From IMG/VR virus record IMGVR_UViG_3300038318_000223, positions 1 to 35,400 of that record: 35,400 bases of DNA; one strand, 5' to 3'. The stretch comes from a virus. Lineage: Duplodnaviria > Caudoviricetes. A model generated the notes under the pieces. It had not been told where the DNA came from. It searched no databases and saw only the letters and a list, made by a program, of their open reading frames with translations. Positions 3,001-22,782 of this stretch are shown one piece after another. Each line of letters starts with the position of its first letter. Position 1 is the stretch's first letter. The position numbers and the translations under genes were made by a program.

Positions 3001-3013
3001 AAAATTTAATAGT

Positions 3014-3110
3014 TTTGTAATATACTAAAAATCAATGAGAATAATTTAAAATAATTTATAAAAACACTTGTATAGTATAATAATATATTATACTTTTACA
3101 TAAAGAAATT
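3014..3110 (+). promoter_or_regulatory. Second copy of the early promoter region
   Basis: Aligns with about 481-584 (GTAAT..AATCAA.GAGAATAATTT..CTTG.AT.GTATAATA..TTATAC.TTT); -7 box variant TACTTTTA. Confidence 0.55.
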
Positions 3111-3115
3111 AACAC

Positions 3116-3526
3116 ATGGAAACGTTAAATAAAATATTAATAGGAGGTCAAGCACTAAGAAATTTAGGGAGCGACCGTTTTACAAATGATTTAGATTATT
3201 TGGTAAATGATACTTCGACAAAAGAAGCATTTATATGTTCTGAAAGTGTTGATTATTTAAACGCAAACGGGAATAGATTGTTTGCGGAAATTTTTGAAAT
3301 TGAAAATGGCAACGAAATTGCAACTCCTCAATCTCTTTTAGAATTAAAATGTTATGCTTTTGTTCAACATTGTCAAAATTTCAATTTTGCAAAAGCAGAT
3401 TCATGCGAATATGATATAAAATTTTTGGTTAGGAAATTTAATTGCGTACCAAAAATTGTTAAAAAATATATCAGTTTAGGAGAATTTCAAGAAATCGAAA
3501 AAATAATTAAAAATATAAAATACTAA
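3116..3526 (+). CDS. Minimal nucleotidyltransferase (Pol-beta superfamily, AbiEii/MenT/DUF6036-like)
   Basis: LIGGQAL...RFTNDLD (GG plus DxD), later LLELK and K..S.EYD motifs matching the AbiEii-like NTase layout. Confidence 0.75.
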   Translation: METLNKILIGGQALRNLGSDRFTNDLDYLVNDTSTKEAFICSESVDYLNANGNRLFAEIFEIENGNEIATPQSLLELKCYAFVQHCQNFNFAKADSCEYDIKFLVRKFNCVPKIVKKYISLGEFQEIEKIIKNIKY

Positions 3527-3725: not shown

Positions 3726-4490
3726 ATGGAAACAAAGAGAATATCGGAAAAAGAAATCGAAGGCATGCCTGTCTTAGCAACAGGCTATAAGATGTTCAAA
3801 AATGATTGGACGACAAAACACGGGAAATATGACTATAAAGATGAGAAAGGTAATGTATTAGGTTCTATTCACAAAGTTGAAGGAGATTTGGAAGAATGTG
3901 CTTGTGGCTTACATTTTAGTAAATTACCTCATGATTGTTTTAATTTTTACGAATCGGTTCAGTGGAACAAATTCGCTAAAGTAGAAGCATATAAGGAATG
4001 TATTGATTCCGAAGACGGCGAAAAATCAGTCGCCTCGATAATTAAAATTGTGGAGATATACTCTTTTGATGAGTTTATTAATCTAATTCAAGAAGAGTTG
4101 CAAAATTCATACGGCGTTAATGATTCATACGGCGTTTATTATTCAAAAGGCGTTAATGATTCATTTTTTTGTAAAAATATAACAGGGGTATCAAAATGTA
4201 TTTTATGTAGTAATTTAGAAGGAGCAAAATTAAAATTATTTAATAAAAAGACTACAGAAAGCCGATTTAACGAAGTTAAAAATAAGTTAATTGGCTTCGG
4301 CTGGTATCCTAAATTCAACAATGCTGAAGAATTGAGAGGGAATCTCGAATGGTACGAGGCTAACATTCCTGCCATTGTAAAAGTAGAAAACAAAACAGCA
4401 TATAGCTTTATGCCGAAAGATATGGTAGATTATATTAAAAATCTGCCCGAATTTAACGAAAAAATATTTGACGAAATATTTAATAAATAA
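3726..4490 (+). CDS. Phage protein with CxxGLHF N-terminal domain and short hexapeptide repeats
   Basis: GYKMF...CACGLHFS...CFNFY N-domain common in repeat-containing phage proteins; SxGVNx repeats. Confidence 0.7.
   Translation: METKRISEKEIEGMPVLATGYKMFKNDWTTKHGKYDYKDEKGNVLGSIHKVEGDLEECACGLHFSKLPHDCFNFYESVQWNKFAKVEAYKECIDSEDGEKSVASIIKIVEIYSFDEFINLIQEELQNSYGVNDSYGVYYSKGVNDSFFCKNITGVSKCILCSNLEGAKLKLFNKKTTESRFNEVKNKLIGFGWYPKFNNAEELRGNLEWYEANIPAIVKVENKTAYSFMPKDMVDYIKNLPEFNEKIFDEIFNK
4105..4163 (+). repeat. 18-bp in-frame tandem repeat (3.3 copies)
   Basis: ATTCATACGGCGTTAATG / ATTCATACGGCGTTTATT / ATTCAAAAGGCGTTAATG / ATTCA. Confidence 0.9.
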
Positions 4491-4491
4491 T

Positions 4492-4875
4492 ATGGAAGCC
4501 TTTAAAAAAATAATCGAAAATTGGAACGATGATTTAATCCCTTGTTACGAAGAGATTGCAGAAAATATTTATAGCGACTTTGGAAAAAGCATTTTAAGTT
4601 ATGATTTTAATTTACCTTTTGGACAAATTAAAAGGATAACCTATCAAATTATAGGAAATGAAGTTGGCACTGTTACAATTAAGTATATAGATAGGTTCAA
4701 AGGGGAAGATGGTTGTAAAACAGTTGATGATGAGGACATATGCCTATTTTATATTGACAAAGCAAATGAATATATTCATGAATATCTTAATAAAATGACG
4801 CCAATTTGGGATAAAGAAAAGGAGGAGTGGAATAAACAGCTCGAAAGAATGCGTACAAATCCAATTTACAGATAA
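4492..4875 (+). CDS. Hypothetical protein
   Basis: ORF 4468..4875; the ATG at 4492 directly follows the upstream stop. Confidence 0.65.
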   Translation: MEAFKKIIENWNDDLIPCYEEIAENIYSDFGKSILSYDFNLPFGQIKRITYQIIGNEVGTVTIKYIDRFKGEDGCKTVDDEDICLFYIDKANEYIHEYLNKMTPIWDKEKEEWNKQLERMRTNPIYR

Positions 4876-4905
4876 CTAATTAATAAATAAAAAAATAACA
4901 TTAAG

Positions 4906-5841
4906 ATGAGTAATTTAATTAAAAAACCTCAAGAGCTAAATTTACAAGCCAAGTTAAAAATATTGTTATACGGGCAGGCAGGGGTCGGTAAATCGACACT
5001 TTCATTATCAGCACCGAACCCGTTATTAATCGACTGCGACGGAGGGATACACCGTGTAAACTTCGGACACGTCAAAGACACCGTTCAAGTCGAATCATAC
5101 GACGATGTTTTAAACTTGCTAAAAGAAGACTTGCGCCCTTATGAATCAATTATAATTGACACAGGCGGAAAGCTATTAGACTTTATGGGCGAATACATTA
5201 TCAGCCGAAACTCAAAAATGGGAAAATTAAACGGAATGCTAACCTTACAAGGCTATGGAGAACGCAAAGCCGAGTTTTCAAATTTCTGTAAGAAAATAAG
5301 TTTGCTCAATAAGCATTTGATTTTTGTCGCACATAGGCAAACACAGCAAGAGGGAGACGAATACCGTTATGTTCCGTTATTTGGCGGTTCAAATTACGAT
5401 GCTTTGGTAACAGAATTAGACCTTGTTGGATACATGGAAGCACAAGGAAAGAAACGAACAATAACTTTCGACCCTACGAGCCGTAACGACGGTAAAAACA
5501 CATGCAATTTGCCTTCTATTGTCGAAGTGCCTAATACGGTAGATGACAAAGGAAATGCACTTGACAATACATTTATAACCGAAAAAGTTATAAAAGTGTA
5601 TAACGAACGCTTGCAAAAAAACAAAGAGATGAAAAAAGAGTATGATGATTTGATTGAGTTTATAAGTAACGAATTATCAGCAATTGAGACCCCTGAAAAC
5701 TTGACCGAATTTATGACTAAAATACCCTCTTTAAAGCATGTTGGAAGCAGTTTATTAAAAGCTAAGAAACTGTTAAACAAAAGGGCTGTTGAATTGAACG
5801 TAAAGTTTAACAAAGAAACATCAAGTTATGAAACGATATAA
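4906..5841 (+). CDS. Sak4-like AAA ATPase (phage ssDNA-annealing recombinase)
   Basis: Walker A YGQAGVGKST, LLIDCDGG, Walker B IIIDT, LIFVAH, DLVGY; next to an exonuclease. Confidence 0.85.
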   Translation: MSNLIKKPQELNLQAKLKILLYGQAGVGKSTLSLSAPNPLLIDCDGGIHRVNFGHVKDTVQVESYDDVLNLLKEDLRPYESIIIDTGGKLLDFMGEYIISRNSKMGKLNGMLTLQGYGERKAEFSNFCKKISLLNKHLIFVAHRQTQQEGDEYRYVPLFGGSNYDALVTELDLVGYMEAQGKKRTITFDPTSRNDGKNTCNLPSIVEVPNTVDDKGNALDNTFITEKVIKVYNERLQKNKEMKKEYDDLIEFISNELSAIETPENLTEFMTKIPSLKHVGSSLLKAKKLLNKRAVELNVKFNKETSSYETI

Positions 5842-6553
5842 TTTCTATGCTACTTTATTAGATGCCTTTCAGCGTTACCTTGACGCTGAAAGTATCTATG
5901 AAAAGTATTTCAACGAAAAAATGAGCTTTGCGGAATACGAAGCGCAAGCAAAACAGGAACTTATTGATAAAATTAACCGTGTGCCATTTGACAGCGACGC
6001 AGCGGACAAAGGAACAGCATTTAATGAGTTGGTTGATGTATTAGCCCACAAGATTACATCCGATAAAATTACATTTACGGAAGAAAAAGAAATCTATACG
6101 GTAAAGTACAAAGACAGGGAATTTACATTTGACAAAGCTATATGCGAAGCTATATCCGAAAAGATTAAAGGAGCAATCCCACAATATTTTTGCAGTGCCG
6201 ATTTAAAGGTAAATGATAACATTGTAAATTTATATGGTTATATTGACGAGGTAAAAGAATTTACGATAATTGACATAAAGACTACTGCAAAATATCAAGC
6301 GTTCAAATACCTTAAGAATTGGCAGCATGTGGTTTATCCATTTTGTCTAAGCAAAAGTGGAATAAATATTGAAACATTCGTTTATTTAGTGGTCGAAATG
6401 AGTGGAAAAAACGTAAATATACACGAGGAACTATACAATTACAATTTCAGCAATGATATATCACGGTTATATGCCATGTGTGAAAATTTAATCTTGTTTT
6501 TAGAGACTAATCGCAGCTTAATAACCGATAAAAAGATTTTCAATGAAAAATGA
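5828..6553 (+). CDS. PD-(D/E)XK exonuclease (Cas4/RecE-like partner of Sak4)
   Basis: KGTAFNE...LYGYID...IIDIKTT...WQHVVY motifs. Confidence 0.8.
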   Translation: MKRYNFYATLLDAFQRYLDAESIYEKYFNEKMSFAEYEAQAKQELIDKINRVPFDSDAADKGTAFNELVDVLAHKITSDKITFTEEKEIYTVKYKDREFTFDKAICEAISEKIKGAIPQYFCSADLKVNDNIVNLYGYIDEVKEFTIIDIKTTAKYQAFKYLKNWQHVVYPFCLSKSGINIETFVYLVVEMSGKNVNIHEELYNYNFSNDISRLYAMCENLILFLETNRSLITDKKIFNEK

Positions 6554-6881
6554 AGAACATAATTTGCAAGTAGCTTGTGTGAGGTGGTTCGATATGCAAT
6601 ACCCCTCTTACAAAAACATGTTATTTGCAGTACCGAACGGCGGCCAAAGAAATGTTGTTGTAGCATCAAAACTGAAAGCCGAGGGAGTGCGGGCAGGTGT
6701 TGCCGATTTGATTCTAATGTGTGGCTTAGGTCAAGTTTTATTCATAGAAATGAAAACAAAGAAGGGCACACAAAATGAATCACAAAAAGCCTTTGAAAAA
6801 ATATGTCTTGAAAACGGATATATTTATAAAATCGCCCGCAGTTTTGAAGACTTTAAAAAACTAATTGAAATGTATTTCTAA
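6543..6881 (+). CDS. VRR-NUC domain nuclease (Holliday-junction resolvase-like)
   Basis: EHNLQ...FAVPNGG.R...EGVRAGVADL...FIEMK...Q..Q. Confidence 0.9.
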   Translation: MKNEEHNLQVACVRWFDMQYPSYKNMLFAVPNGGQRNVVVASKLKAEGVRAGVADLILMCGLGQVLFIEMKTKKGTQNESQKAFEKICLENGYIYKIARSFEDFKKLIEMYF

Positions 6882-7318
6882 TGAAAATAACAGCAAAAGG
6901 ACATATTAAAAACGGAAGGCTCGTAATTAACAAAAGCGAGCTTCCCGTCTTTTTGCATAAAATTTCAACACAGAAAAACAAGCCTGTTAATATAACGGTA
7001 GAAGCAGGCAGCAAAAGAAGCGACCAACAAAATAAATATTATTGGGGTGTGGTTGTCGAGCTGATCCGTTTAGCAATAAATAAAATTAACGGCGAAAACT
7101 TCACAGCAGAAAACATACATGATTTCTTAAAAGAGCGATTTTTGGAAGGTTTAGAAATTCATGCAGCGACCGGAGAATTATTAAACATCCGAAAATCTAC
7201 AACCGACAATACAACCACAAAACAAGAGGAATATCACGAACAATGCCGACAATTTGCAGCCGAATATTTGAATATTGAAATACCATTACCGAACGAAAAA
7301 TTAACGTTAAATTTATGA
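6881..7318 (+). CDS. NinB/Orf-like recombination protein
   Basis: KRSDQQNKYYWG, H..LK..FL and ST..T...Y.E.C motifs; located in the recombination module. Confidence 0.7.
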   Translation: MKITAKGHIKNGRLVINKSELPVFLHKISTQKNKPVNITVEAGSKRSDQQNKYYWGVVVELIRLAINKINGENFTAENIHDFLKERFLEGLEIHAATGELLNIRKSTTDNTTTKQEEYHEQCRQFAAEYLNIEIPLPNEKLTLNL

Positions 7319-7322
7319 ACTT

Positions 7323-7679
7323 ATGACAACATATATCATAAAAGAAAAATTATTAAAAGATAGGCATATAGATGTAATCAGGGCTATGGCTCACTTCTTA
7401 GCAAGTTCACATAAAAACACCTATATTGTCTACAGATGCACCCCTATAATCGAAGTTAAAAAGGATAATGAAACTCAGTATAGTTCATTAAACTATGAAG
7501 ACTTGTATGCTAAGTTGACCATCGAACTTAATAAGTCAGAAAAACAAGTAGAGTATCTTAAAAGTGAACTGAAAAAGAAAAAAGAGGAATTGACAACAGC
7601 AAATGAAATTATAACGAAACGTACATTAAAGGATTATATTTTATTAACGATTAAAAATTTACTAACATGGAAACACTAA
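7323..7679 (+). CDS. Hypothetical coiled-coil protein
   Basis: ORF with heptad-rich C-terminal half. Confidence 0.6.
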   Translation: MTTYIIKEKLLKDRHIDVIRAMAHFLASSHKNTYIVYRCTPIIEVKKDNETQYSSLNYEDLYAKLTIELNKSEKQVEYLKSELKKKKEELTTANEIITKRTLKDYILLTIKNLLTWKH

Positions 7680-7804
7680 AAATCGTATTATCAGCAGTTT
7701 GGATTGTGTTTTTTGCAATCGTTATAATCGTAACAGTTTGCAGCATAATCGGATGCAAAGTTGGAAAAGAACAGGATAAAATAATTAAAAAAAGTTTAAA
7801 ATAG
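7667..7804 (+). CDS. Small single-TM membrane protein (45 aa)
   Basis: Manual translation METLKIVLSAVWIVFFAIVIIVTVCSIIGCKVGKEQDKIIKKSLK*. Confidence 0.6.
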   Translation: METLKIVLSAVWIVFFAIVIIVTVCSIIGCKVGKEQDKIIKKSLK

Positions 7805-7892
7805 TATAAACCTAATTAAATAAATAATCAAAAACTTAAATAATTATCGGCTGCCTTTTATCAATCGAATCATTAACTTAAAATTAAATAAA

Positions 7893-8210
7893 ATGGGATT
7901 AGATTTTTCACATACTTGTTCAAAAATAGACAAGGCAATATCGGAAGCAAAAGATACTATAATCGACTATTTGAAAGATTGCATTACAGACTTATGCCCT
8001 TATATTACCGATGAAAAGGCAAGTGAGTTATCAAAAGATTTGGGAACTGATTTATATGATAAAATTTCAGATGGATTTGAAGCAACAAGAGAAACAAATG
8101 AGGATATGAGAAAGCAAGCAGACTATCAAATTGAAAAACTTGAATCCGAAATTGATGACTTAAATTCTGAAATCAAAGAACTCGAAAGCCAATTAGATGC
8201 TGTTTCTTAG
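7893..8210 (+). CDS. Hypothetical coiled-coil protein in a cassette-like unit
   Basis: ORF bracketed by inverted TTATCGGCTGCC (7844-7855) and GGTTGCCGATAAC (8210-8222). Confidence 0.75.
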   Translation: MGLDFSHTCSKIDKAISEAKDTIIDYLKDCITDLCPYITDEKASELSKDLGTDLYDKISDGFEATRETNEDMRKQADYQIEKLESEIDDLNSEIKELESQLDAVS

Positions 8211-8213
8211 GTT

Positions 8214-8420
8214 GCCGATAACGTTTCGCAGGTATGGAATCGGTTTTTACGGAATTGAAACACTAAACTTAATAATATGAATGCAAGAGAAAAATTAGAT
8301 GAATTTGCCGAAATAAACGGTATGAACAAGAACCAACTTATAGGATGGTCAATAGCAGCAGACTTTGCTGAATGGTACGTAGAGCAAGTAAAAAACTGTT
8401 CTACACCTGATGTTGTAGGG
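8214..8420. repeat. attC-like site with a long ORF-containing loop
   Basis: GCCGATAAC, then arm CAGGTATGGAATCGGTTTTTAC (8229-8250) ... arm GTAAAAAACTGTTCTACACCTG (8388-8409), then ATGTTGTAGGG. Confidence 0.6.
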
Positions 8421-8531
8421 CGAAGCGAACAGTTGTGCGACCATGAGTGGCTAAACCATTCATTCGACCATTTCGGATTCCTACAAGAGCAAATATGTGA
8501 TAAGTGTGGAGCAAAGCAATCTGTTTCATAA
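8277..8531 (+). CDS. Chimeric small protein with C-terminal CxH...CxxC module
   Basis: Starts inside the hairpin loop and reads through the GTT site as KNCSTPDVVGRSEQL into CDHEW...CDKCG. Confidence 0.7.
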   Translation: MNAREKLDEFAEINGMNKNQLIGWSIAADFAEWYVEQVKNCSTPDVVGRSEQLCDHEWLNHSFDHFGFLQEQICDKCGAKQSVS

Positions 8532-8599
8532 CATCGGAATAACCGCTGTTTAAATTGCGTTTATGGAGTGTTATCGTGCGTTTCAATGCACGAAATAAA
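8529..8599. repeat. About 70-bp attC-like repeat, copy 1
   Basis: TAACATCGGAATAACCGC-loop-GCGTTTATGGAGTGTTA followed by the hairpin TCGTGC...GCACGA; near-identical copy at 10278-10351. Confidence 0.85.
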
Positions 8600-8651
8600 C
8601 TAAATAGAAAATTAAAAACAAAAACACATTTAAAATATCAAAAAATATTAT

Positions 8652-8807
8652 ATGGAAACGATAAAATTAAACACAAAAGCCTCTAAAAAACACGGATATT
8701 GTCCATACTGCAAGAGATATATCGGAAGTGGATATATCGGAACGGAACACAAAAAACTATGCAAAAATGTATCCGTAGAAGTTCGTAAAATACATGGAGG
8801 AGAATAA
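8652..8807 (+). CDS. Small zinc-finger-like protein (51 aa)
   Basis: Manual translation METIKLNTKASKKHGYCPYCKRYIGSGYIGTEHKKLC...; CxxC...HxxxC. Confidence 0.6.
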   Translation: METIKLNTKASKKHGYCPYCKRYIGSGYIGTEHKKLCKNVSVEVRKIHGGE

Positions 8808-8810
8808 AAT

Positions 8811-9050
8811 ATGGAAACGATAAAATTCACAAAAGGTGAATTAAACCACCTTGCTAATCTGATAGCAGATAATGAGCGAAATGGTACTTATTATGGAAAC
8901 AGGAAGCAGTATTGGAAACGCTCATTTGAGCTAAAACAGAAATTGCTTTTATTTGCTTGTAGTAGTTCGTATTGTCCTCAATGTGGTGTTGAGCATAGTA
9001 CGACTGCTTATATAGGGTTTTGTAGTGAAAAATGCCTTAACAAGTATTAG
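8811..9050 (+). CDS. Chimeric small protein with C-terminal CxxC...CxxxC zinc ribbon
   Basis: CPQCG...FCSEKC module bracketed by an 18-bp imperfect inverted repeat (8960-8978 / 9049-9066). Confidence 0.7.
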   Translation: METIKFTKGELNHLANLIADNERNGTYYGNRKQYWKRSFELKQKLLLFACSSSYCPQCGVEHSTTAYIGFCSEKCLNKY

Positions 9051-9097
9051 GGCAATATGACTGCTAATATGGAATTAACAACTAAAATAAATAAAAA

Positions 9098-9370
9098 ATG
9101 AAAAGTAAATTACAACTACTGAAAGAGGCTAATGACATTTTGCGGTCAGTTAACTCGATAATTGAACGAAAAGGTAATATTACAAATTGGGAAGGAATTG
9201 ATAAAAAAGTGAAAATGGCATTAGCCGAGCAACATGAACTGCTGTTAGCAAAAAACTGCTATATATCCGATGTTACAAATCAGGTTTGCGGTGATTGCCT
9301 ATATTACCTTACTTGCAATAACGAAAGCCGAGATAAACAGATATGCGACAATTATGATAATGAACCATAG
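9098..9370 (+). CDS. Chimeric small protein with C-terminal Cys-rich module
   Basis: Linker KNCYISDVTNQV is encoded by AAAAAACTG-N10-GATGTT, homologous to 8390-8414; then CGDC...C...C. Confidence 0.7.
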   Translation: MKSKLQLLKEANDILRSVNSIIERKGNITNWEGIDKKVKMALAEQHELLLAKNCYISDVTNQVCGDCLYYLTCNNESRDKQICDNYDNEP

Positions 9371-9374
9371 CAAA

Positions 9375-9434
9375 TATAAATTTAAAAAATCTTTACAAAA
9401 ACTGCAAAACGTATTAAATTTTTGTGTATTTTTG
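9375..9434 (+). promoter_or_regulatory. Promoter (copy 1 of a 60-bp near-identical repeat)
   Basis: -7 box TATTTTTG 9427-9434; matches 11307-11366 with about three substitutions. Confidence 0.75.
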
Positions 9435-9448
9435 CAGTAGATTTTAAA

Positions 9449-9578
9449 AGCATACTTGAACATGAATAATTTTTTTAAGGAAATAAAAAGCACTAAGGAA
9501 GCCGTAAACCGAAAGGAGCGGAAGGGAAACAATCTTACCGATGTATGCTCCCTAATCTCTTCCTTTGTGCTTTTTTTT
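9449..9578 (+). ncRNA. Structured leader RNA, copy 1 (C4/CI-antisense-like topology)
   Basis: Outer stem AAAAGCACTAAGGAAG/CTTCCTTTGTGCTTTT, GAAA-capped hairpin, AGGGA/TCCCT helix; loop GTATGCT complementary to upstream AGCATAC; covaries with copy 2. Confidence 0.6.
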
Positions 9579-9622
9579 AATGGGATGAAAAACAAAATTA
9601 ATAACAATTAAAATTTACAACG

Positions 9623-9865
9623 ATGAAAACTTTAGCAACATTTAATTTAGAAAACATCCTTGCATCAGACGGGATTACAGAAATGAAAATTTGGGAAAAC
9701 AACGGTATTTACACATTAACAACTGGAAATAAAACTCCTGATTTTGACTTAGACAATTACGGGTGTGAAAATAAAGAGGATTTACTTTATTTAGCAAAAA
9801 GAAGCCTGAAAAGAGTGAAAGAAAATTCAGCAAACGAAGTAATTAATTTTATTGAAACCCTATAA
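9623..9865 (+). CDS. Hypothetical protein
   Basis: 80-aa ORF with A-rich leader downstream of the structured leader. Confidence 0.7.
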   Translation: MKTLATFNLENILASDGITEMKIWENNGIYTLTTGNKTPDFDLDNYGCENKEDLLYLAKRSLKRVKENSANEVINFIETL

Positions 9866-9876
9866 TAACTACCACG

Positions 9877-10269
9877 ATGAGAGCAATATCTAAAACACAA
9901 ATCGAAGCAATTGAAAAACTTGGTGGAACTATTCACGATGATTATATCACGTTTGAAGTTGAAAATCAAGAATACGGTGAACATTGTGATGATGAAGATA
10001 AAATATGGAATGAAATTCAAAAAATTATTCCTGGTGTAGATGGAGCAATGCAAGGACATCCGCTTGATGAAAGTGACTTGAATTACATCTACTTTAAAAT
10101 AGACTTTATACCATACCCAAAAGACTTTATTAATTGGGCTGAATTAAGCAGAACACTTGCAGGAGATAGGTCTGCAATTACAAGAAATAGAATTTCAGCA
10201 AAACATGAAGAAACTATTCAAACATTAATTAATTCAGTCGGTGAATGGTTAATTTCTTTGCGCTCTTAA
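9877..10269 (+). CDS. Two-domain protein with C-terminal HTH-like motif
   Basis: Acidic N-domain plus INWAELSRTLAGDRSAI, resembling an HTH. Confidence 0.6.
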   Translation: MRAISKTQIEAIEKLGGTIHDDYITFEVENQEYGEHCDDEDKIWNEIQKIIPGVDGAMQGHPLDESDLNYIYFKIDFIPYPKDFINWAELSRTLAGDRSAITRNRISAKHEETIQTLINSVGEWLISLRS

Positions 10270-10277
10270 ATGGGCGG

Positions 10278-10351
10278 TAACATCGTAATAAACGCTGTTT
10301 TAAGAATTGCGTTTATGGAGTGTTATCATGCGTTTCGATGCACGAAATAAA
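10278..10351. repeat. About 70-bp attC-like repeat, copy 2
   Basis: TAACATCGTAATAAACGC-loop-GCGTTTATGGAGTGTTATCATGCGTTTCGATGCACGAAATAAA. Confidence 0.85.
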
Positions 10352-10402
10352 TCCAAACTATTGTCGGTTAGCTAACGAAACTTTAAATGGAGGGCTTTTT
10401 AT

Positions 10403-11179
10403 ATGATTTTAAGAAGATTAGGAAATAAACAAAAAATTGCAAAGGAAATACAAAAGCATTTCCCACAGCATAGAATTTATATTGAACCTTTTTTTGGTGC
10501 TGGTGGTATGTTTTTTAATAAACCAAAAGCAAACTATAATTTAGTTAATGATATTGATAACGATGTTTTTAATTTATTTCAAGTTGCTACGAATAACAAA
10601 AACGAATTGAAAGAAGCGTTTAAATTAATGCCAATACACGCTGGATTATTAGAACACTGGAAGAAAAATAATGAAACAGACCCTATAAAAAAGGCTTTAA
10701 GGTTTATATTTTTAAGCAACTTTACATTTTTGGGAACTGGACAGCAAATGAGGTTTACAGCAACTAAAAATGAATATCCTGAAAACTTTGAATATTTGCT
10801 TGATGCAACTGCAAAATATCTTTTTGGTGTGCAGTTTGGCAATACTGATTTTAGAAAGTTTATAAAGGATATTTCTTTTCAAACTGATGGAAGAAATGAT
10901 GAGGCAAAAACTCTAATTTATGCAGACCCCCCATACATTGCAACAAATGATAATTACAGCCATTCATTTACCGAACAGGATAGCGTTGATTTATTTGATA
11001 CACTACAAAATAGCAAGTGTATGTTTGCAATGAGTGAATTTGACAATGAGTTTATTTTAAACCAAGCAAAAGAACGCAAATTGAATATAATTTACATTGG
11101 AGAAAGAACCAATTTAAAAAATAAACGAACTGAAATATTAATAACGAACTATGAGAACGCACCGACTTTATTTTCCTAA
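10403..11179 (+). CDS. DNA adenine methyltransferase (Dam/D12 class, orphan)
   Basis: GNK, YIEPFFGAGG, NDID, YADPPY, EILITNY. Confidence 0.93.
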   Translation: MILRRLGNKQKIAKEIQKHFPQHRIYIEPFFGAGGMFFNKPKANYNLVNDIDNDVFNLFQVATNNKNELKEAFKLMPIHAGLLEHWKKNNETDPIKKALRFIFLSNFTFLGTGQQMRFTATKNEYPENFEYLLDATAKYLFGVQFGNTDFRKFIKDISFQTDGRNDEAKTLIYADPPYIATNDNYSHSFTEQDSVDLFDTLQNSKCMFAMSEFDNEFILNQAKERKLNIIYIGERTNLKNKRTEILITNYENAPTLFS

Positions 11180-11306
11180 TGGTTTTGAAAAAACAATGGA
11201 ATTTACGAAAACCGTTCTCACGTTGGAAGCGGAAGCGAAAGAATATCCGATAATAGACTTTCCAACAATGTAAAAATATTATACTTACAATGAAATTTAA
11301 AACGAT

Positions 11307-11366
11307 TATAAATTTAAAAAATCTTTACAAAAGCTGCAAAACGTATTAAAATTTTGTGTACTTTTG
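11307..11366 (+). promoter_or_regulatory. Promoter (copy 2) upstream of the replication operon
   Basis: -7 box TACTTTTG 11359-11366; duplicate of 9375-9434. Confidence 0.75.
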
Positions 11367-11378
11367 TATTGAAATTAA

Positions 11379-11515
11379 TCAGAGTTAAAAATGTATATTA
11401 TTTTTTTAAAACATATTAAAAGCATAAAGGAAGCCGTAACCTGTAAAGAACGGAAAGCTAAACTTTCTACCCTAAACTCTGAGCTTATTTCCTTCCTTTT
11501 TGCTTTTATTTTTTT
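11379..11515 (+). ncRNA. Structured leader RNA, copy 2
   Basis: Outer stem AAAAGCATAAAGGAAG/CTTCCTTTTTGCTTTT, GTAA-capped hairpin, AAGCT/AGCTT helix; loop AACTCTGA complementary to upstream TCAGAGTT. Confidence 0.6.
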
Positions 11516-11527
11516 AGGAGAATTACT

Positions 11528-12007
11528 ATGAAAGAGTTTTTTGAAAAAACACTTGAAGACATTATTTTTAATACAGATAATGAATTGTTATGTGAACATG
11601 GATTGATAATTTCAGGCAAAAAATTAAGACAAGTAAAAATAGGAAATTACGGGATTGCTGATTTAATAACATACAATATTGAAAGGGATTATATATATGA
11701 TAATTACTTAAATATAGCATTGTATGAATTAAAAAGAAAAGAAATAAATAATAATTCTTTTATGCAAGCTATTGGATATATTAAGGGGATAATAGAGTAT
11801 TTAAATAAAAGACAATTTTCAAATTATAAATTAGAAATAATTAATTTATCTGATAATTTTGTTTATTTACCTTCTTTATATACCGATAAAATAGAATATC
11901 CTTTACAATCTATATGTAATATAGAATATTATACTTATGATTATAATTTTAATGGAATAACGTTTATAGATTGTAATGATTATAATTTAGTAGATAAAGG
12001 TTTTTAA
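11528..12007 (+). CDS. PD-(D/E)XK restriction-endonuclease-like protein (NucS C-domain-like)
   Basis: EKTLED...RQVKIG.YGIADL...YELK...QAIGY. Confidence 0.7.
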   Translation: MKEFFEKTLEDIIFNTDNELLCEHGLIISGKKLRQVKIGNYGIADLITYNIERDYIYDNYLNIALYELKRKEINNNSFMQAIGYIKGIIEYLNKRQFSNYKLEIINLSDNFVYLPSLYTDKIEYPLQSICNIEYYTYDYNFNGITFIDCNDYNLVDKGF

Positions 12008-12008
12008 T

Positions 12009-12878
12009 ATGAGCGAATATAGAATTAACGGTTTTGAGCAAATAAAGGCATTTTATTCGTGGGTGTTTAATAATGCAAAAGAAAGAGTAACGCCTCAACA
12101 TATTAGTTTATACTTATTCCTTATCAATCAAAATAATAGAAGTAATTGGATAGAGTGGTTTAAGGTTCCGTTTGATTTAGGTATGGCTGGTGCTTGTATT
12201 GGTAATAAGAAAACATACTATTCATGTTTAAATGATTTAGTTTCATGGAATCTTATAGAATATGAGAAAGGAACTAACGAATACAAGGCACCGTTAATAA
12301 AAATAGCGGTACTAAAAAGTACCTCACATGATACCGCTGCTGTACCTCTACCAGAACCGCTACTGCAACCGCTGCCTACTACTCTACCTATACCGCTACC
12401 TACCCATATATATAAACTAATAACAGATAACATAAAACTAATAACAGATAACGAAGTAAAATTTGAAAAATTCATTGAATCATTAAAAGAAAATATTAAT
12501 AAAGAAAATAAAAGTAAAGAAAATAATAAAGAAGATGAAATTCCAATCGATGAAAAACCATTTAATTATTTAGAATATCATACTTATTATGATTTGGTAG
12601 AACATGCTAAAAAAGAAGAATCATGGTTTAATTCATTACTGCGACTTTTAAAATTAGAAAAAGAAACAATTTTAAGTGAATTAGAAAATTTTCCTATAGT
12701 ACAAGAAGCCAAAGGAAACAAAATAACTAATTTAAAAGAATTTAAAAATCATTTTTTTAATTACATGAATTTAAGAAAAGACGATTTAAGAAAAGTAGAG
12801 CGCAAAAAATCTGAAATCAGCATTGTAGACCGTTTAGAAATTGAACGACAAAAATATTTTGAAATATTAAAAAAATAA
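12009..12878 (+). CDS. Phage replication initiator protein
   Basis: N-terminal wHTH-like domain, Pro-rich linker with DNA repeats, position directly before dnaB. Confidence 0.75.
   Translation: MSEYRINGFEQIKAFYSWVFNNAKERVTPQHISLYLFLINQNNRSNWIEWFKVPFDLGMAGACIGNKKTYYSCLNDLVSWNLIEYEKGTNEYKAPLIKIAVLKSTSHDTAAVPLPEPLLQPLPTTLPIPLPTHIYKLITDNIKLITDNEVKFEKFIESLKENINKENKSKENNKEDEIPIDEKPFNYLEYHTYYDLVEHAKKEESWFNSLLRLLKLEKETILSELENFPIVQEAKGNKITNLKEFKNHFFNYMNLRKDDLRKVERKKSEISIVDRLEIERQKYFEILKK
12345..12452. repeat. Iteron-like repeats (putative origin) inside the initiator gene
   Basis: Five 12-bp units resembling CCGCTACCTAnn (12345-12404), AAACTAATAACAGATAAC twice (12414-12431, 12435-12452), then an A-rich tract. 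Confidence 0.6.
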
Positions 12879-17350: not shown

Positions 17351-18036
17351 TATGAAATATATCCTTGTAACAAAAAAACTACAATTCGAGATGATAAAAC
17401 TAACCGATGATACGAGTAATTAACTTTAATATTAATCACAATCCCTATACGGGGTTATAAAACGGCTTTTTTATGAAAACATATGTACTATTAGTCAGCA
17501 GAACGTTTCCGAAAGGGCATAAAATGGAAGGAGAACCCACATTCTTTGTAGAAAAGATATTAGCTGCATTAGGATTTCCCTATTTAAATGATGAGAATAT
17601 TAAAAAGTTTCACACATGCCGAAAAAATTATGAATTATGGGCAAAACGCATCAAGGAAGTACAAGAAGGTAAAGCTATATTAAGTTTACGCTATTGGAGT
17701 GATAAACCATATCGAAGCAAGCAAGTTGAATTTGCATGTTTAGATAAGGATTCGGGCGTGGGAGTGCAAAAACTTTTATTCGGAATTAATGATTTGCTTT
17801 ACCCAATTGCAGGGGAAGGAATTTGGCTTAGAGGATTAAATCTTGAAAATTTAGCCAAAAACGACGGTCTCTCAATTGACGATTTTAAAGACTGGTTTAA
17901 AAATTATGATTTGAGCAAACCTATGGCAATTATACAATTCACGGAGTTTCGCTATTAATAATTAAATATAAATATAATAAATAAAAATGGAAGAAAATAA
18001 TAAAATCATATGAAATATATCCTTGTAACAAAAAAA
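17351..18036 (+). repeat. 28-bp perfect direct repeat of a gene start, flanking an inserted gene
   Basis: TATGAAATATATCCTTGTAACAAAAAAA at 17351-17378 and 18009-18036. Confidence 0.9.
17473..17958 (+). CDS. ASCH/PUA-like domain protein
   Basis: KFHTCR, and LAKNDGLS..DF..WF near the C-terminus. Confidence 0.6.
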   Translation: MKTYVLLVSRTFPKGHKMEGEPTFFVEKILAALGFPYLNDENIKKFHTCRKNYELWAKRIKEVQEGKAILSLRYWSDKPYRSKQVEFACLDKDSGVGVQKLLFGINDLLYPIAGEGIWLRGLNLENLAKNDGLSIDDFKDWFKNYDLSKPMAIIQFTEFRY

Positions 18037-19098
18037 GCAACAAGCAAAGAAGGAAATTTAACTTACTATCCGAACGAAGTAATTATTGCAAGGAATAATA
18101 TAAGTCAAAATAAGTGGTATAAAATAATAACAGATAAAGAGTTATTGGCATTCTACTACGATAAAATTGATAAAAAATGCAATAACGTTTTGATAATTTG
18201 CGGAGGTGGAATCGGCGATATAATCGCTTATTCGGCACTGTGTAAATATTTACATGAAAAAGGCAAAAATGTACATTTTGCAACACAAAAAAAGTATTTT
18301 GACATATTGAAATGGTTCCAAACTCCGGTTGAAATTTTGGACGTAGAAAAGCCAATTTTTAGAGATTTTTCATTGAGTAATAGAATTTCAAAGTACAACA
18401 CATGGAGAAGAATATTTACGGAATTGATTATTCCGAATCATAACGAAAGCGATTGGTTTGAAGTGATATTTGCCTATGCAGGAATAGAAAAGATTGAAGA
18501 TAGTTATTTTAGGCCTCAGCTAAAAACAAACAGACTAACAAGAAAGAAATCAAATATTGATAAAAAACAAAAGTCGCTTCTTATCTGCAACCAATCGAGC
18601 TGCATGATGCGAAATATTGAGTTTGATGAAATCTACCGAGCAATCCCTGAAGATGTAAAAAAAGACTACAAAATATATGCTTATATGAATAATTTATCTG
18701 TTTCGGATAAAATTCATAGAGAGAATAAAAAATATAAGGATGTTGAGTTTATCAATTCCCCTACCCTTTCCGACTTTCTCAACGACCTCTATGATGTTAC
18801 GGATGTAATAACAGTTGATAGTGCAGCGGTACATTTCCGTGAAGGGATAAATAAACGCTGCCTTGCTTTGTATAATTCCTTTGATAAAGATTGTAGAACA
18901 AAGTATTACAAGTATATAACAGCCGTAAATATAAAATCTGAATGCGATAAACAGCCTTGCTTCAAACATGAACTTAATAAGGGTGATTTATGCGAAAAAG
19001 TCAAAGAATGGCAGTATTCTGCTCCTTGCTTCCGGAGTGAATCAAACAAATTCTTACAGCCGGAATTTAAAAGAATTTTTAATGAGTATTTTAAATAA
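18010..19098 (+). CDS. Glycosyltransferase family 9 (heptosyltransferase-like)
   Basis: GGGIGDII, VITVDSAAVH and Cys-rich C-terminus (C..QPC). Confidence 0.8.
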   Translation: MKYILVTKKATSKEGNLTYYPNEVIIARNNISQNKWYKIITDKELLAFYYDKIDKKCNNVLIICGGGIGDIIAYSALCKYLHEKGKNVHFATQKKYFDILKWFQTPVEILDVEKPIFRDFSLSNRISKYNTWRRIFTELIIPNHNESDWFEVIFAYAGIEKIEDSYFRPQLKTNRLTRKKSNIDKKQKSLLICNQSSCMMRNIEFDEIYRAIPEDVKKDYKIYAYMNNLSVSDKIHRENKKYKDVEFINSPTLSDFLNDLYDVTDVITVDSAAVHFREGINKRCLALYNSFDKDCRTKYYKYITAVNIKSECDKQPCFKHELNKGDLCEKVKEWQYSAPCFRSESNKFLQPEFKRIFNEYFK

Positions 19099-19115
19099 CA
19101 ATAAAAAATAACACT

Positions 19116-19799
19116 ATGTTTACAAGATGTCCAATTTGCGAAAGTAGAACAAATCATTTTTTCAATGTTCCTTTTATCAAAGAAATTAACGTACCTAAAA
19201 AATACGATATACTGATTCAATATAATCGCTGCCCTGAATGCGATTATATCTTTGCTCCTATGTTCAATGCTTGGACTGAAAAGGATTTCAAAGAGCATAT
19301 CTATAACGAAGATTATATAAAATATGACCCTGAATTCCTCAAAATACGCCCGCACACGAACGCAAAACAGTTTTATGATATATTGAAAGGGAAAAGGCAT
19401 TTAGACTACGGAGGAGGCTCCGGAAGGATGAGCAACACCTTAAAAGCTTCCGGAATTGATTCGCATTCGTATGATGTTTTTTATAGTAAAGCAAGACCAA
19501 CCGGACAATTTGATGTAGTTACCTGTATTGAAGTATTGGAGCATAGCATTGACCCTTTGAAAATATTTTCTGATATATTTTCCCTGTTAAAACAAAAAGG
19601 AACTTTAATTCTTAAAACTTCAATTGTTGATTTTTGGAATTGTAAAAACGATTATGAATTTTCACAGCATTGGTACGTGGCTCCTCGAAATGGACATATC
19701 GGTTTTTATTCCATAAAAACATTACAGCTTATTGCAGATAAAACCGGTTTCAATTATAGCCAAAACTCCCCTGCAGAAAATATCTTTATCAAATTATAG
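19116..19799 (+). CDS. Class I SAM-dependent methyltransferase with N-terminal Zn ribbon
   Basis: CPIC...CPEC, LDYGGGSG, FDVVTCIEVLEH, PRNGHI. Confidence 0.88.
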   Translation: MFTRCPICESRTNHFFNVPFIKEINVPKKYDILIQYNRCPECDYIFAPMFNAWTEKDFKEHIYNEDYIKYDPEFLKIRPHTNAKQFYDILKGKRHLDYGGGSGRMSNTLKASGIDSHSYDVFYSKARPTGQFDVVTCIEVLEHSIDPLKIFSDIFSLLKQKGTLILKTSIVDFWNCKNDYEFSQHWYVAPRNGHIGFYSIKTLQLIADKTGFNYSQNSPAENIFIKL

Positions 19800-19903
19800 T
19801 TAATTATATTATAATAGATGTTATAGTTTAATACTCTTTATTCGTTATTCTTTAGTTTTTTCTTAAATTTCAAAAATCCTTCCAAAAATCTACATGCTGA
19901 AAA

Positions 19904-19945
19904 CGTAACTGCTTGATAAATTAAAACCATTATCAATGAGTTACG
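19904..19945. repeat. Inverted repeat made of two IHF-consensus-like sites
   Basis: CGTAACTgcTTGATAA-N10-TTATCAAtgAGTTACG; each half matches WATCAAnnnnTTR. Confidence 0.7.
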
Positions 19946-20013
19946 AGAGTTGATGTAAATTAATTTAATTGTATTACAATAATTTTCTAATTCTATTTAA
20001 GTATTTACTAATG

Positions 20014-20047
20014 GAGGGCAGCTTTAAAAGTTGCTCTCTTTTTTTTT
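20014..20047 (+). terminator. Intrinsic terminator at the early/late boundary
   Basis: GAGGGCAGCTT...AAGTTGCTCTC followed by T9. Confidence 0.85.
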
Positions 20048-20109
20048 CTACAAAAACAACCTCTTTTCCGTATTATAGAAATATTTTTAAAAAAAAATCA
20101 AAAAAATAA

Positions 20110-20139
20110 CAAATTGTATTTAGATAATGCTTATATTTG
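20110..20139 (+). promoter_or_regulatory. Promoter of the modification/packaging operon
   Basis: TATATTTG at 20132-20139 (TAnnTTTG). Confidence 0.6.
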
Positions 20140-20156
20140 CGGAAAATTATGAAAAA

Positions 20157-20537
20157 ATGCATTACGTATCAAAGAAGTTGGAAATATCGGCATCTCATAA
20201 ACTGCATTTAGACTATGAAAGCAAATGCTCTAACTTACATGGACACAATTGGAAAGTAACTGTGCATTGTAAAGCAAAAGAACTTAATAATAACGGAATG
20301 GTAGTTTATTTTACCGAAATCAAGAAACTGATTCACGATAAACTTGACCATCAAAGTTTAAATTACATTCTTCCTTTCAATCCTACAGCGGAAAACATTG
20401 CAAAATGGATTTACGATAAGTGGAAATTGCAAAACGATGCGTGGAGCCAAGAAAAACGGCAAAATGACATCGAGTTATCTTACAGGAGTATTCAAAGAAG
20501 ATTCCCTTGCAAGAAGCGAATTTATGAACTTAATTAA
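20157..20537 (+). pseudogene. queD: 6-carboxytetrahydropterin synthase QueD, 3'-truncated and fused out of frame to folE sequence
   Basis: SASH...C.NLHGHNW...GMVV.F...LDH..LN...PTAENIA; similarity stops at AKWIYD and the last strands (V.E) are missing. Confidence 0.8.
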
Positions 20538-20544
20538 AAAATAA
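20428..20544 (+). pseudogene. folE: C-terminal remnant of GTP cyclohydrolase I (FolE)
   Basis: Alternative frame reads CKTMRGAKKNGKMTSSYLTGVFKEDSLARSEFMNLIKK*, matching the FolE C..MRG...TS...G.F.....R.EF signature. Confidence 0.8.
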
Positions 20545-20545
20545 A

Positions 20546-21229
20546 ATGGCAAAAGTTAAAAACGCAAAGATATCCGACTTGATTCCGGATGATAAAAATG
20601 CAAACAAAGGAACGGAATATGGTAAACATTTAATGGATAAATCATTCCGACAATTCGGGGCAGGACGTTCAATTTTGCTTGACAAAAATAATAAAATAAT
20701 TGCAGGAAATAAAAGTACAGAACAGTGTGCCGAAATAGGCATTGAAGATGTAATCATTGTTGAAAGCGATGGCACCAAGTTAATAGCAGTTAAACGAACT
20801 GATATTGATATTGACACAAAACAAGGAAGAGATTTATGTTTGGCTGACAACGCTACTCAAAAAGCTAATCTTGAATGGGATAAAGATATTGTGCAATCAT
20901 TAGCTTCTACTTTTGATATTGAAGTAAAAGAGTGGGGTATTGATATCCCGGAAACAATTGAAACATTAGAAAAAATAAATTTAAACGATGCTGAATTTGA
21001 AACAGGAATAAATAAATATAACGACAAAAATTGCCAACTACCAATTGTTAAAGAGTTTTTTGAAACACATGAATGTTTTATAATTCCAATACACAACGAA
21101 ATTGATGAAAAATTCATAAGAGAGATATTTTGTTTAAATGAAAATTATATTTCAGATTGTGGAGATGGAAAAATTAGAAAAACAAATGTTATAGATATTC
21201 AAAAGATAAAATCATGTCTGTTAAAATAA
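20546..21229 (+). CDS. ParB/Srx N-terminal domain protein
   Basis: KISDLIPD.KNAN...S..QFG.GRSILLD.NN.IIAGN...ADN; typical of terminase-proximal DNA-modification loci. Confidence 0.8.
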   Translation: MAKVKNAKISDLIPDDKNANKGTEYGKHLMDKSFRQFGAGRSILLDKNNKIIAGNKSTEQCAEIGIEDVIIVESDGTKLIAVKRTDIDIDTKQGRDLCLADNATQKANLEWDKDIVQSLASTFDIEVKEWGIDIPETIETLEKINLNDAEFETGINKYNDKNCQLPIVKEFFETHECFIIPIHNEIDEKFIREIFCLNENYISDCGDGKIRKTNVIDIQKIKSCLLK

Positions 21230-21942
21230 TAGTACCTTCAAAAGGCAGGGCTTCAAATGTTCTAACTAAAATCGATTCACAAATTTTGTGTGTTGATATA
21301 ACGGAATTAGATGAATATAAAAAATTTAACGATTGTGAAATTATAACACACAATTCATTAAAAAATCTATCATCAATAAGGCAATTTTTGTATGAAAATT
21401 ACAAAGATTTATTTATGGTTGATGATGATATTGTAAGTGTTGAAAGACTTTATAATGTAAATAATCAAAAATTAACAGAAATAGAAATAAAAAATATTAT
21501 TGACGATTGCTATTACAATACAAAAAATATCGGAGCTAAATTATTTGGATTCAATAATGATCCAAAACCAGTTCATTATAATCAACATAAACCTTTCATG
21601 TTAAACGGATATATAAATGGTTGTGCAATTGGCTTAATTCAAGATAAGCATTTATTCTTTAATGAAAATACAACAGCCTGTGAATCACATTGGATTAATT
21701 TATTAAATGCTTATTATAATAGATTTTGTTTTATTGATAAGAGATTTCATTTTAGACAAAAAGCAAATTCAACATTTCTACTCGAAGGAGGACAAGCCGG
21801 GAAACGCACTATGCAGACAGAAAAATACGATACTATTTTATTAAAAAAAATATTCGGCGATTCAGTTGTAGTTAAAAAAGAAAAAAATAAAATAAAACAA
21901 CTACATGAGTATCAAAGACAATTAAATATAAGATTATGGTAG
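21214..21942 (+). CDS. GT-A fold glycosyltransferase (GREB1/TET-associated-like)
   Basis: IIVPSKGR, R, FMVDDDI (DxD) and a late GG motif. Confidence 0.65.
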   Translation: MSVKIIVPSKGRASNVLTKIDSQILCVDITELDEYKKFNDCEIITHNSLKNLSSIRQFLYENYKDLFMVDDDIVSVERLYNVNNQKLTEIEIKNIIDDCYYNTKNIGAKLFGFNNDPKPVHYNQHKPFMLNGYINGCAIGLIQDKHLFFNENTTACESHWINLLNAYYNRFCFIDKRFHFRQKANSTFLLEGGQAGKRTMQTEKYDTILLKKIFGDSVVVKKEKNKIKQLHEYQRQLNIRLW

Positions 21943-22268
21943 AATATATATATTACTTGATTTGTCCAATCGAAAAAACAGTCAAATATGTTGGAAAGTC
22001 AAAAAATCCTAAAACAAGATATAAACAGCACATTTCTAAATTAGATAGATTGAACACAGAGAAAAAGCAATGGCTTTTAAATTTGTTTGCTAAAAATTTA
22101 TTGCCTGAAATAATCATTGTTGAAAAATGTGTAGAAAATGGAAGAGAAAGAGAACAATTTTATGTGGATAAGAATAAAAATACTATATTAAATATACATA
22201 ATCCAAAAAAAGGAGAGAAATCAATCCCGAATAGGTATCCAAAAAATGTAAGTTATGGCAAAGTATAA
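21936..22268 (+). CDS. GIY-YIG nuclease
   Basis: YIYYL...KYVGKS.NP..R..QH...E...LN. Confidence 0.85.
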   Translation: MVEYIYYLICPIEKTVKYVGKSKNPKTRYKQHISKLDRLNTEKKQWLLNLFAKNLLPEIIIVEKCVENGREREQFYVDKNKNTILNIHNPKKGEKSIPNRYPKNVSYGKV

Positions 22269-22782
22269 TAAAAGGATAGTTAAAAATATTTGTTCCTTAA
22301 TAAAGAAGGATAGTTATACTATTGCTGAAATATGCTCACAGATAGGCATTAACATAGATACTTATTACGATTGGCTAAAAAACAAACCCGAATTTTCCGA
22401 AGCAATTAAAAATGCTAAAGGTGAATACGATGAATTTATTGCAGCGGAAGCGAAAAAATCTTTACTTAAAAAAATACAAGGCTATACGGTTCAAGAAAAG
22501 AAAGTTGTAATGGTTGAAAGTAAAGACAAAGATGAAAGCGGAAAGTTTAAACCTAAAATCAAGGAGCAAACAATTATAGATAAGCACTATCAACCGGACA
22601 CAGCAGCAATAATATTTACATTAACAAACAAAGTTCCGGAAGAATATCAAAATAAATACAATACTGAACTAACCGGAAAAGATGGCAAGGACTTAGTTCC
22701 TGAACCTATTACGGTAAGAATAATTGACGATAAAGAACAGCTAAATGGAAATACTGACAACAAAGATATATCGGGAGGTTGA
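22255..22782 (+). CDS. terS: Terminase small subunit
   Basis: N-terminal HTH (IAEIC..IGI..DTYYDW), PDTAAIIF.L.N, ELTGKDG; directly before terL. Confidence 0.85.
   Translation: MAKYNKRIVKNICSLIKKDSYTIAEICSQIGINIDTYYDWLKNKPEFSEAIKNAKGEYDEFIAAEAKKSLLKKIQGYTVQEKKVVMVESKDKDESGKFKPKIKEQTIIDKHYQPDTAAIIFTLTNKVPEEYQNKYNTELTGKDGKDLVPEPITVRIIDDKEQLNGNTDNKDISGG

Follow-up and report, generated by a model that had tools for sequence, protein, structure and literature searches.

What has assembled the small genes at positions 7844-11179 of a tailed-phage genome fragment, IMG/VR record IMGVR_UViG_3300038318_000223? The fragment, here called the window, covers 35.4 kb of a contig that is 46 kb or more in length. 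Its genes all lie on the plus strand and include recombination and replication, terminase, portal, head and tail genes; the tract in question occupies the early region, with NinB on one side and replication genes on the other. An original prediction, made from the sequence alone, had proposed an integron-like array of hairpin-bounded cassettes without an integrase in the window. We find that the tract is an integron-like cassette array, real but mostly eroded, because half-site ranks, identities to cassettes at two other loci (L024 and L103) and contig breakpoints bear it out while two of the proposed sites, at 10367 and 11222, failed. Building on the sites, their covariation, their breakpoints and polarity, the linkage of such arrays to a recombinase gene and a set of re-paired protein halves, we regard the following reading as probable: a decayed, recombinase-less array whose hairpin sites stand ahead of their genes, likely fold on the coding strand and probably recombine through a small tyrosine recombinase, one that has no insertion of the integron integrase IntI type and comes from related phages or the host.

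Results

The window contains one intact and two short hairpin sites among several half-sites. A position model of half-sites, trained on 217 sites from other genomes, was used to rank 70,742 window positions. The four best right halves lie at 8570, 10322, 9272 and 8412 (ranks 1-4), all on the plus strand, as do the parts of the array described below, and the best left half lies at 8220. The right half-site at 9272 had been overlooked in the original prediction. The intact site, AAC-G...T-GTT at 8220-8414, has arms at about 8230-8250 and 8388-8409, matching a hairpin predicted at 8229-8250 and 8388-8409. Its left half ranks first and its right half fourth, its arm score is 25.5 compared to 22.0 for the best of 40 region shuffles, and its arms pair better than those of 197 of 200 shuffles when only the arm duplex is considered; the fold of the whole 206-nt hairpin (8215-8420) is not significant (z -1.06). 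A generic hairpin detector at a score of at least 24 found only this site in the region and missed the short ones. The loop contains the start and front half of an open reading frame (ORF) at 8277-8531, and in contigs of two metagenome runs, X4 and X6, the arms are kept while the loops differ.

The two short hairpins, predicted at 8529-8573 and 10278-10325, fared unevenly. Their right halves rank first and second, and the second (10276-10327) folds with z -4.1, while the fold of the first (8527-8575) reaches z -1.2 only. The first copy (8530-8572, AAC-A type) is the terminus of many different bodies in other samples; seven contigs in X4 and two in X6 depart from the window before 8529. It is followed, after its GTT, by a small stem-loop (8570-8600, z -2.65) that recurs at 10322-10351 (repeat D7, 96%) and may be labelled either an empty body or terminator-like. 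The second copy (10279-10324, left rank 49) adjoins an orphan body end at 10270-10281 whose partner 5' end is absent from the window.

Cassette bodies are recognizable through their self-complementary ends and their relatives. Body A (7844-8222) has lost the G of its GTT and its upstream hairpin and carries a gene at 7893-8210 (105 aa, phrog_32976). It is 89% identical to an intact cassette in an unrelated phage (L024), with homology starting exactly at 7844, where an X4 contig also departs from the window; past the AAC, the window and L024 continue into distinct hairpins of one family. Its ends are complementary with p~0.003 relative to 4000 random GTT/AAC pairs, and none of 200 shuffles is equally stable, so that the pairing proposed around 7844 and 8210 is confirmed. 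Among three relatives of the gene, only that in L024 has cassette ends; L025 lacks them and L026 (37%) sits in another cassette context. Body C (8958-9068) has two decayed cores (TGT...AAT). Its ends pair with p<=0.0005 relative to random GTT/AAC pairs (0/200 shuffles), and at 8958-8960 the TGT of the window is replaced by GTT in contigs of other runs, which confirms, beyond chance, a second body in the region where a pair had been proposed at 8960 and 9049. Body D (9272-9374) has lost its 3' box and adjoins a promoter repeat; in run X5 more box-like letters follow beyond 9374. Lastly, a Dam-family methyltransferase gene (10403-11179, within 10395-11179) is a former cassette passenger with eroded ends: window positions 10395-11174 are 88% identical to a complete cassette in L103, part of a regular array that ends at a recombinase gene.

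Body B (8412-8532) is a hybrid. A 5' box that belongs to the VGRSEQL family and contains a GCGAAGC bulge is joined at about 8435 to a module with a 3' end that fits bodies whose usual 5' box encodes VMESD, and the ends of the resulting body pair no better than shuffles (49/200). The VGRSEQL box (8420-8426 in the window, also in loci L001-L023) bulges out GCGAAGC on the coding strand. This heptamer forms a very stable DNA mini-hairpin. GCGAAG is also found in the loop of class 1 attC bottom strands.

All strings quoted in the original prediction are present where it placed them, and two of the sites it named are not sites. The palindrome GTTAGCTAAC at 10367 ranks 375 as a right half and 210 as a left half. 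For the pair at 11222 and 11258, GTT 11222 and AAC 11264 rank 4042 and 3780 and the end pairing is weak (p~0.02). The stretch 11215-11236 matches a sequence encoding the methyltransferase motif DSHVGSGS of a related phage, L207, at 21 of 22 positions and is likely a relic of that motif, judging by this match; in L207, SHVGSGS precedes the same promoter repeat as in the window. A candidate attI-like relic at 11264 was rejected (rank 15,360).

Breakpoints coincide with the cores and the arms covary. Among the matches listed, contigs of other runs, which constitute the metagenome evidence, have loose ends at 8414, 8435-8436, 8529-8533 and 8574, with further ends at, for example, 8521, 8554, 8562 and 8595-8624. 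Breaks in relatives and contigs do lie on AAC and GTT, as had been predicted. Parts of the array region occur in bioreactor, wastewater, landfill and soil metagenomes, and a 46-kb contig of run X1, possibly the source of the window, is identical to it over 8170-8640. A 26-nt junction motif starting at 8409 is present in 23 viral loci comprising 17 distinct right arms, including that of the window. For these sites, chosen by body motif only, left and right arms of the same site score 25.0 on average compared to 12.6 for crossed arms; 13 of 17 own pairs reach at least 23.5 and only 2 of 210 crossed pairs reach at least 24. Inner body ends match at 6.9 of 8 positions within bodies and 3.1 of 8 between them (16 bodies). 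The hairpins therefore show the compensatory changes and the advantage over shuffled sequence that the original prediction had named as checks. A larger set of 234 sites was selected for complementarity and its pairing counts are therefore circular, which does not apply to the set chosen by body motif. Across the family, sites possess R''/R' AAC-GTT cores, L boxes and an unpaired central spacer, and their most frequent length is 121-127 nt. The two ends of a body form about 12 bp, in which position +8 is regularly a wobble (80/104), unlike in integrons. Unpaired bases are concentrated on the 5' (R'-L') arm (71 compared to 25), which also has the longer spacer. Rfam covariance models applied to 6500-12500 returned one chance-level match only (E=5), and exact viral scans gave no match to the ORF 8277-8531 front half, nor to the short hairpin or the motif at 11222.

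It is scarcely credible that chance palindromes, terminators or assembly chimeras account for these features, although the AT-rich window contains 1646 inverted pairs, two named sites failed and many homologues lie on short contigs. The concentration of all four best right halves in the array region on one strand, the covariation and the homology to the L024 and L103 cassettes largely refute this explanation. In addition, the sequence shared at most junctions is far shorter than an assembly word, and the same sites exist in a cultured phage: Polaribacter phage P12002L (L112) has nine strong right-half matches at 30000-40800, on its minus, gene-coding strand, around methyltransferase genes, more than the two of its sites tested in print.

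The gene-coding strand resembles the integron bottom strand. In 217 of 234 phage sites the inner pair on the coding strand is G..T (AAC-G...T-GTT), while class 1 attC controls read on the gene strand show A..C (5) or A..T (3) (AAC-A...Y-GTT; n=8, two of 10 positions yielding no site). G.T wobbles favor the coding strand (378 compared to 105), the duplex is more stable on that strand in 198 of 217 sites, and 93 of 101 phage bodies combine plus-strand genes with G..T polarity. In attC sites, the base after the R' AAC is mostly G (PMC2727003), and the bottom strand has more G:T pairs and is cleaved in its 5' AAC (PMC5027507). By its sequence, then, the gene-coding strand of the phage sites has the signature of an integron bottom strand. 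This reverses the integron polarity assumed in the original prediction, and the hairpin goes with the gene behind it. Since the coding strand is bottom-strand-like, the main crossover is probably AA|C, with each hairpin leading its gene.

Sequence comparisons around near-identical hairpins point the same way. Their 7 nt after GTT are shared in 13 of 36 pairs and their 7 nt before AAC in 2 of 36 (about 3% at random). The two short hairpins of the window have common sequence from AAC through GTT and beyond, six different upstream ends occur among seven loci that agree in loop and body, and, of 14 metagenome loci, the 13 retaining the AAC end of the ORF 8277-8531 back-half module all differ in the sequence beyond it. 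The commonest break appears to be at AAC rather than at the predicted G|TT, even though breaks do fall on both cores. Exchange at G|TT is also supported, by the re-paired halves described below and by the flanks of near-identical hairpins: of 58 pairs, 39 have different 120-nt flanks on both sides, and the 18 pairs that share both flanks are overlapping or near-identical contigs.

Related arrays end at a small tyrosine recombinase gene. Locus L006, found via the junction motif, ends at a gene for a 266-aa tyrosine recombinase. Among the best 80 of 220 viral recombinase loci, which are not phylogenetically independent and were retrieved with a query from a locus chosen by site motif, 179 hairpin sites lie in 239 kb upstream of the recombinase and 6 in 353 kb downstream, and 53 of 54 loci with at least 1 kb of upstream sequence have a site. 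One of 109 bodies is shared between recombinase loci. In 35 of 49 loci the array's terminal AAC precedes the recombinase match by 50-60 nt (about 52 nt) and is followed by a conserved, non-hairpin TAYTATATRTA, which we read, from its position and sequence, as a putative attI equivalent. The catalytic residues R132, K157, H216, R219, H242 and Y251 are invariant in 63 recombinase sequences (aligned without L058, which has a stop codon). A model of the L006-type enzyme (pLDDT 88.7) matches XerA and IntI4, with a TM score of 0.71 to VchIntIA (PDB 2A3V); a single-sequence fold gave pLDDT 46. IntI is marked by an insertion of ~35 residues near patch III (PMC4889954; PMC8138268 likewise gives the insertion as the mark). 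More than 90% of 145 recombinases have no equivalent of IntI1 residues 197-227, and the enzyme scores 145 bits against TIGR02249, below the 265-bit integron-integrase cut-off. A recombinase of this type, absent from the fragment, is likely the shuffler of these cassettes. The suggestion that an integrase elsewhere in phage or host serves the array stands in that the window has none; the enzyme linked to such arrays is no IntI, and its gene is found in related phages as well as in hosts.

Three window ORFs read through a site. In each, a feature missed by the original prediction, the GTT core is read as Val. The 84-aa chimeric ORF at 8277-8531 contains it in DVVGRSEQL and has a Cys in its back half. 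Searches for half homologues were length-limited; among the matches listed, at least 98 homologues comprise at least 25 with the front half only, at least 73 with the back half only and none with both. The front-only matches carry 24 tails in 20 clusters and the back-only matches fall into 40 head clusters. The 90-aa chimeric ORF at 9098-9370 crosses GTT 9272, with a right arm at 9250-9271 and an unrecognizable left arm; its 48 homologues comprise 13 front-only, 30 back-only, 4 with both halves and 1 with neither. The 79-aa ORF at 8811-9050 crosses the decayed GTT at 8958-8960, with a right arm at 8940-8957 and its left arm lost. Its homologues read FAVSSS at the junction, 10 of 12 being whole and 2 of 12 having the front half only with another back half. 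In run X3 the left arm is present before 8808. The adjacent ORFs starting at 8652-8668 and 8811-8827 open with nearly the same 17 nt, and recombination between these starts may have removed the left arm. In other genomes, the front halves of all three ORFs and the back halves of two are thus found with other partners.

Read-through is a general property of the phage sites. When loci selected through the read-through motif are excluded, an ORF that starts in the loop and reads GTT as Val is present in 45 of 173 phage sites, compared to 17 and 7 in the other frames; for hairpins of at least 160 nt the proportion is 7 of 7. Among chromosomal sites, described below, none of 51 has a read-through ORF. 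The usual VMESD-coding 5' box of the ORF 8277-8531 back half pairs with its own 3' end; the window has that 3' end with a VGRSEQL box ahead, and in L203 a left arm is fused directly to the back-half module. Because of this hybrid and this direct junction, exchange seems to occur at the inner box as well.

Two explanations of the re-paired halves compete with site-specific exchange at GTT. In the first, which we judge unlikely, a recombinase moves whole cassettes and homology-tolerant phage recombination by Sak4 and NinB re-pairs front and back halves at similar arms or boxes. Genes for a Sak4-like protein, NinB and a resolvase-like protein lie just upstream of the array, the arms fall into families, the inner-box hybrids of the window and L203 have mismatched ends, and IntI disfavors the top strand about 1000-10,000-fold (PMC5027507). 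However, for dozens of unrelated partners with only about T-GTT-A in common, the junctions fall at a single codon, and the back half usually retains its 5' box (VMESD, VIKSV) as front halves vary. In the second, which appears quite improbable, new cassettes are created by copying existing hairpins onto new passenger DNA with regeneration of the 3' box, so that no halves are swapped between finished cassettes. Near-identical hairpins often keep GTT plus 10-25 nt and continue into unrelated passengers whose 3' ends match, the inner arms show covariation with the passenger, and the same arms enclose different loops. Yet one back half is found, together with its own boxes, behind about 40 unrelated front halves, which needs repeated transfer of a finished body.

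Relation to integrons

The system works like an integron and is not one by the tests of IntI, extrahelical bases and gene direction. It shares with integrons (IntI, attI and attC, as in class 1 and VchIntIA) the AAC/GTT core, an unpaired spacer flanked by two boxes, on one strand a G.T bias and a G following AAC, self-complementary cassette ends, an attI-like site at the array end ahead of the recombinase start, where site polarity is that of intI1, and the tyrosine-recombinase fold of the linked enzyme. In contrast to integrons, the phage recombinase has 266 aa and no IntI insertion, phage genes point towards attI whereas integron attC sites lie downstream of their gene on the top strand, extra bases are found on the R'-L' arm instead of the R''-L'' arm (PMC2727003), phage ORFs begin within the loop, and hairpins reassort with bodies. 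Because the phage genes point towards attI, a classical Pc promoter is unlikely.

With three hairpin sites and no recombinase, the window could be classed with clusters of attC sites that come without an integron integrase (CALINs; two or more attC sites, with no intI nearby). Qi et al. (2023) described 17 CALINs in virulent phages, of which IntI1 recombined five of six attC sites (PMC9892861). They resemble the window in being integrase-less attC-like clusters near methyltransferase genes, and one, in P12002L, belongs to the same site family; the accessible portions of that paper report no cognate recombinase, reversed gene polarity or read-through or chimeric proteins. The activity of IntI1, the AAC/GTT cores, the unpaired central spacer and the modal length of 121-127 nt would all suit classical attC sites moved by a true host IntI. 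We nevertheless consider an ordinary CALIN very unlikely: P12002L_attC1, with AAC-G on its gene-coding strand the only family-typical site among the six, is the sole one not recombined by IntI1 (n=1; PMC9892861), unpaired bases lie mainly on the R'-L' arm, the arrays adjoin a recombinase without the IntI insertion, and IntegronFinder reports almost no integrons in Bacteroidetes (Neron 2022, PMC9024848).

Bacterial chromosomes carry arrays with the same site geometry. A scan of 6 of 64 parts gave 80 genome contigs, 67 with Bacteroidota names, in which arrays (L116-L191) lie beside ~263-aa XerA-like genes annotated as 'site-specific tyrosine recombinase/integron integrase', for most 39-47% identical to the phage enzyme; 35 of 80 loci had a site, and many contigs break just past the recombinase gene. 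Unlike in phages, 67 sites lie in 219 kb downstream of the recombinase and 3 in 374 kb upstream, genes have the classical direction (57/67 A..C) and read-through ORFs are absent. These arrays possibly represent a large integron class missed by standard surveys. In the literature outside subscription papers and bioRxiv supplements, we found no account of reversed arrays, the small recombinase or re-paired halves and no paper on Bacteroidota chromosomal arrays; the integron-like system of Bacteroidota and their phages is apparently undescribed, with only the phage CALINs in print (PMC9892861). Coding attC sites have been proposed as a tool for module shuffling (Nivina et al., 2020, PMC7439510). 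There, too, attC-type sites are translated within a protein, but those sites were engineered for IntI1 while the phage sites are natural and their re-paired halves are found in public data.

Host and other features of the window

A host among the Bacteroidota is probable: DNA matches of 75-77% to the methyltransferase are present in Cellulophaga and Olleya phages, TAnnTTTG, which we take to be the consensus promoter motif of that phylum, is contained in the repeats at 9375 and 11307, and the site family is present in Bacteroidota chromosomes. L207, closely related to the window phage, has counterparts of 4455-7347 and the promoter repeat but lacks the whole array. Positions 3-371, at the contig start, are the 3' end of an IS200/IS605 TnpB gene, of which L207 has another copy at the position of the array.

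At 9375-9582 and 11307-11512 (about 9850-10060 in L207), a promoter-like repeat precedes a ~100-nt three-way-junction RNA that ends in a U-run (z -3.6 and -3.7), has 4 of 25 pairs changed on both sides and no Rfam match. A gapped viral scan returned 65 stretches with the L207 contig as the only true member. The element is possibly an attenuator ahead of the replication genes. A second promoter-like pair (472-589 and 3005-3122, 71% over 118 nt) is partly shared with L207. The large terminase (22745-25033) contains an insert of about 370 aa with CF...HN|S ends that resembles an intein with an endonuclease domain, and the minor head (head morphogenesis) protein (27774-29462) has a C-terminal extension of about 200 aa; one PHROG match of the latter, annotated as ADP-ribosyltransferase, covers residues 198-364 only. 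A cluster at 18010-22268 contains glycosyltransferase-like, methyltransferase, QueD-like and ParB-like genes, the QueD-like frame apparently losing similarity past about residue 78-105.

Discussion

The variable region of this phage was probably built by recombination of single-stranded hairpins, as the original prediction had supposed and as the strand bias of the sites would allow. The coding strand would fold during phage replication. In the usual step, the small recombinase would exchange strands at AA|C on the 5' arm so that hairpin and body move as one, inserting at the attI-like AAC about 52 nt before the recombinase gene. In a rarer step, exchange at G|TT with the opposite strand folded would uncouple hairpin from body, and exchange at the inner box just past GTT would be rarer still. 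Strand choice by IntI is relaxed when extrahelical bases are removed or moved (PMC2727003, PMC5027507), and a site with its extra bases on the other arm, together with an enzyme lacking the IntI insertion, could plausibly use both strands. The rarer step would join front and back halves in frame and therefore yield new small proteins, about a quarter of phage sites having a loop ORF that reads GTT as Val. Most sites in the window phage are eroded and therefore little of its array would still be mobile.

Several observations weigh against this reading. The window lacks an attI-like site (best score 11.6 compared to a training median of 20.2), and its six frames contain no match to a profile of 145 recombinases plus IntI1; the link to the recombinase is one of genomic association only. 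Both short window sites have A, not G, after AAC, ORF 8811-9050 is mostly intact among its homologues, and no excised form is present among the X1 contigs. The same methyltransferase family occurs without surrounding sites in the cultured phages phi10:1 and Harreka_1. The phage also encodes a Sak4-like annealing protein and NinB, which could make some of the junctions.

Taken by itself the window is a degraded example, of value for three read-through genes and an inner-box hybrid caught in place. A broader proposal, which we hold to be evenly balanced between right and wrong, is that Bacteroidota phages possess an integron-like system with its own minimal recombinase, in which hairpins, bodies and inner passengers are separately exchangeable in one fixed frame, a natural DNA-level exon shuffling that builds new small early proteins; its chromosomal counterpart would be a large integron class that surveys miss, and the self-matching body ends would offer a handle on cassette creation. 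Natural recombination sites would then serve as translated protein joints, found in the accessible literature only as an engineering proposal (PMC7439510). The findings suggest that sites of the attC type are recombined by an enzyme that has no counterpart of the insertion considered indispensable in integrons (PMC8138268, PMC4889954), and that arrays exist in a phylum with next to no integrons according to IntegronFinder (PMC9024848). The recombinase, the attI-like site and the hairpins have now been defined, and the cultured phage P12002L carries sites. Such a system would account, by a site-specific mechanism, for the mosaic nature of small-gene regions in Bacteroidota phages.

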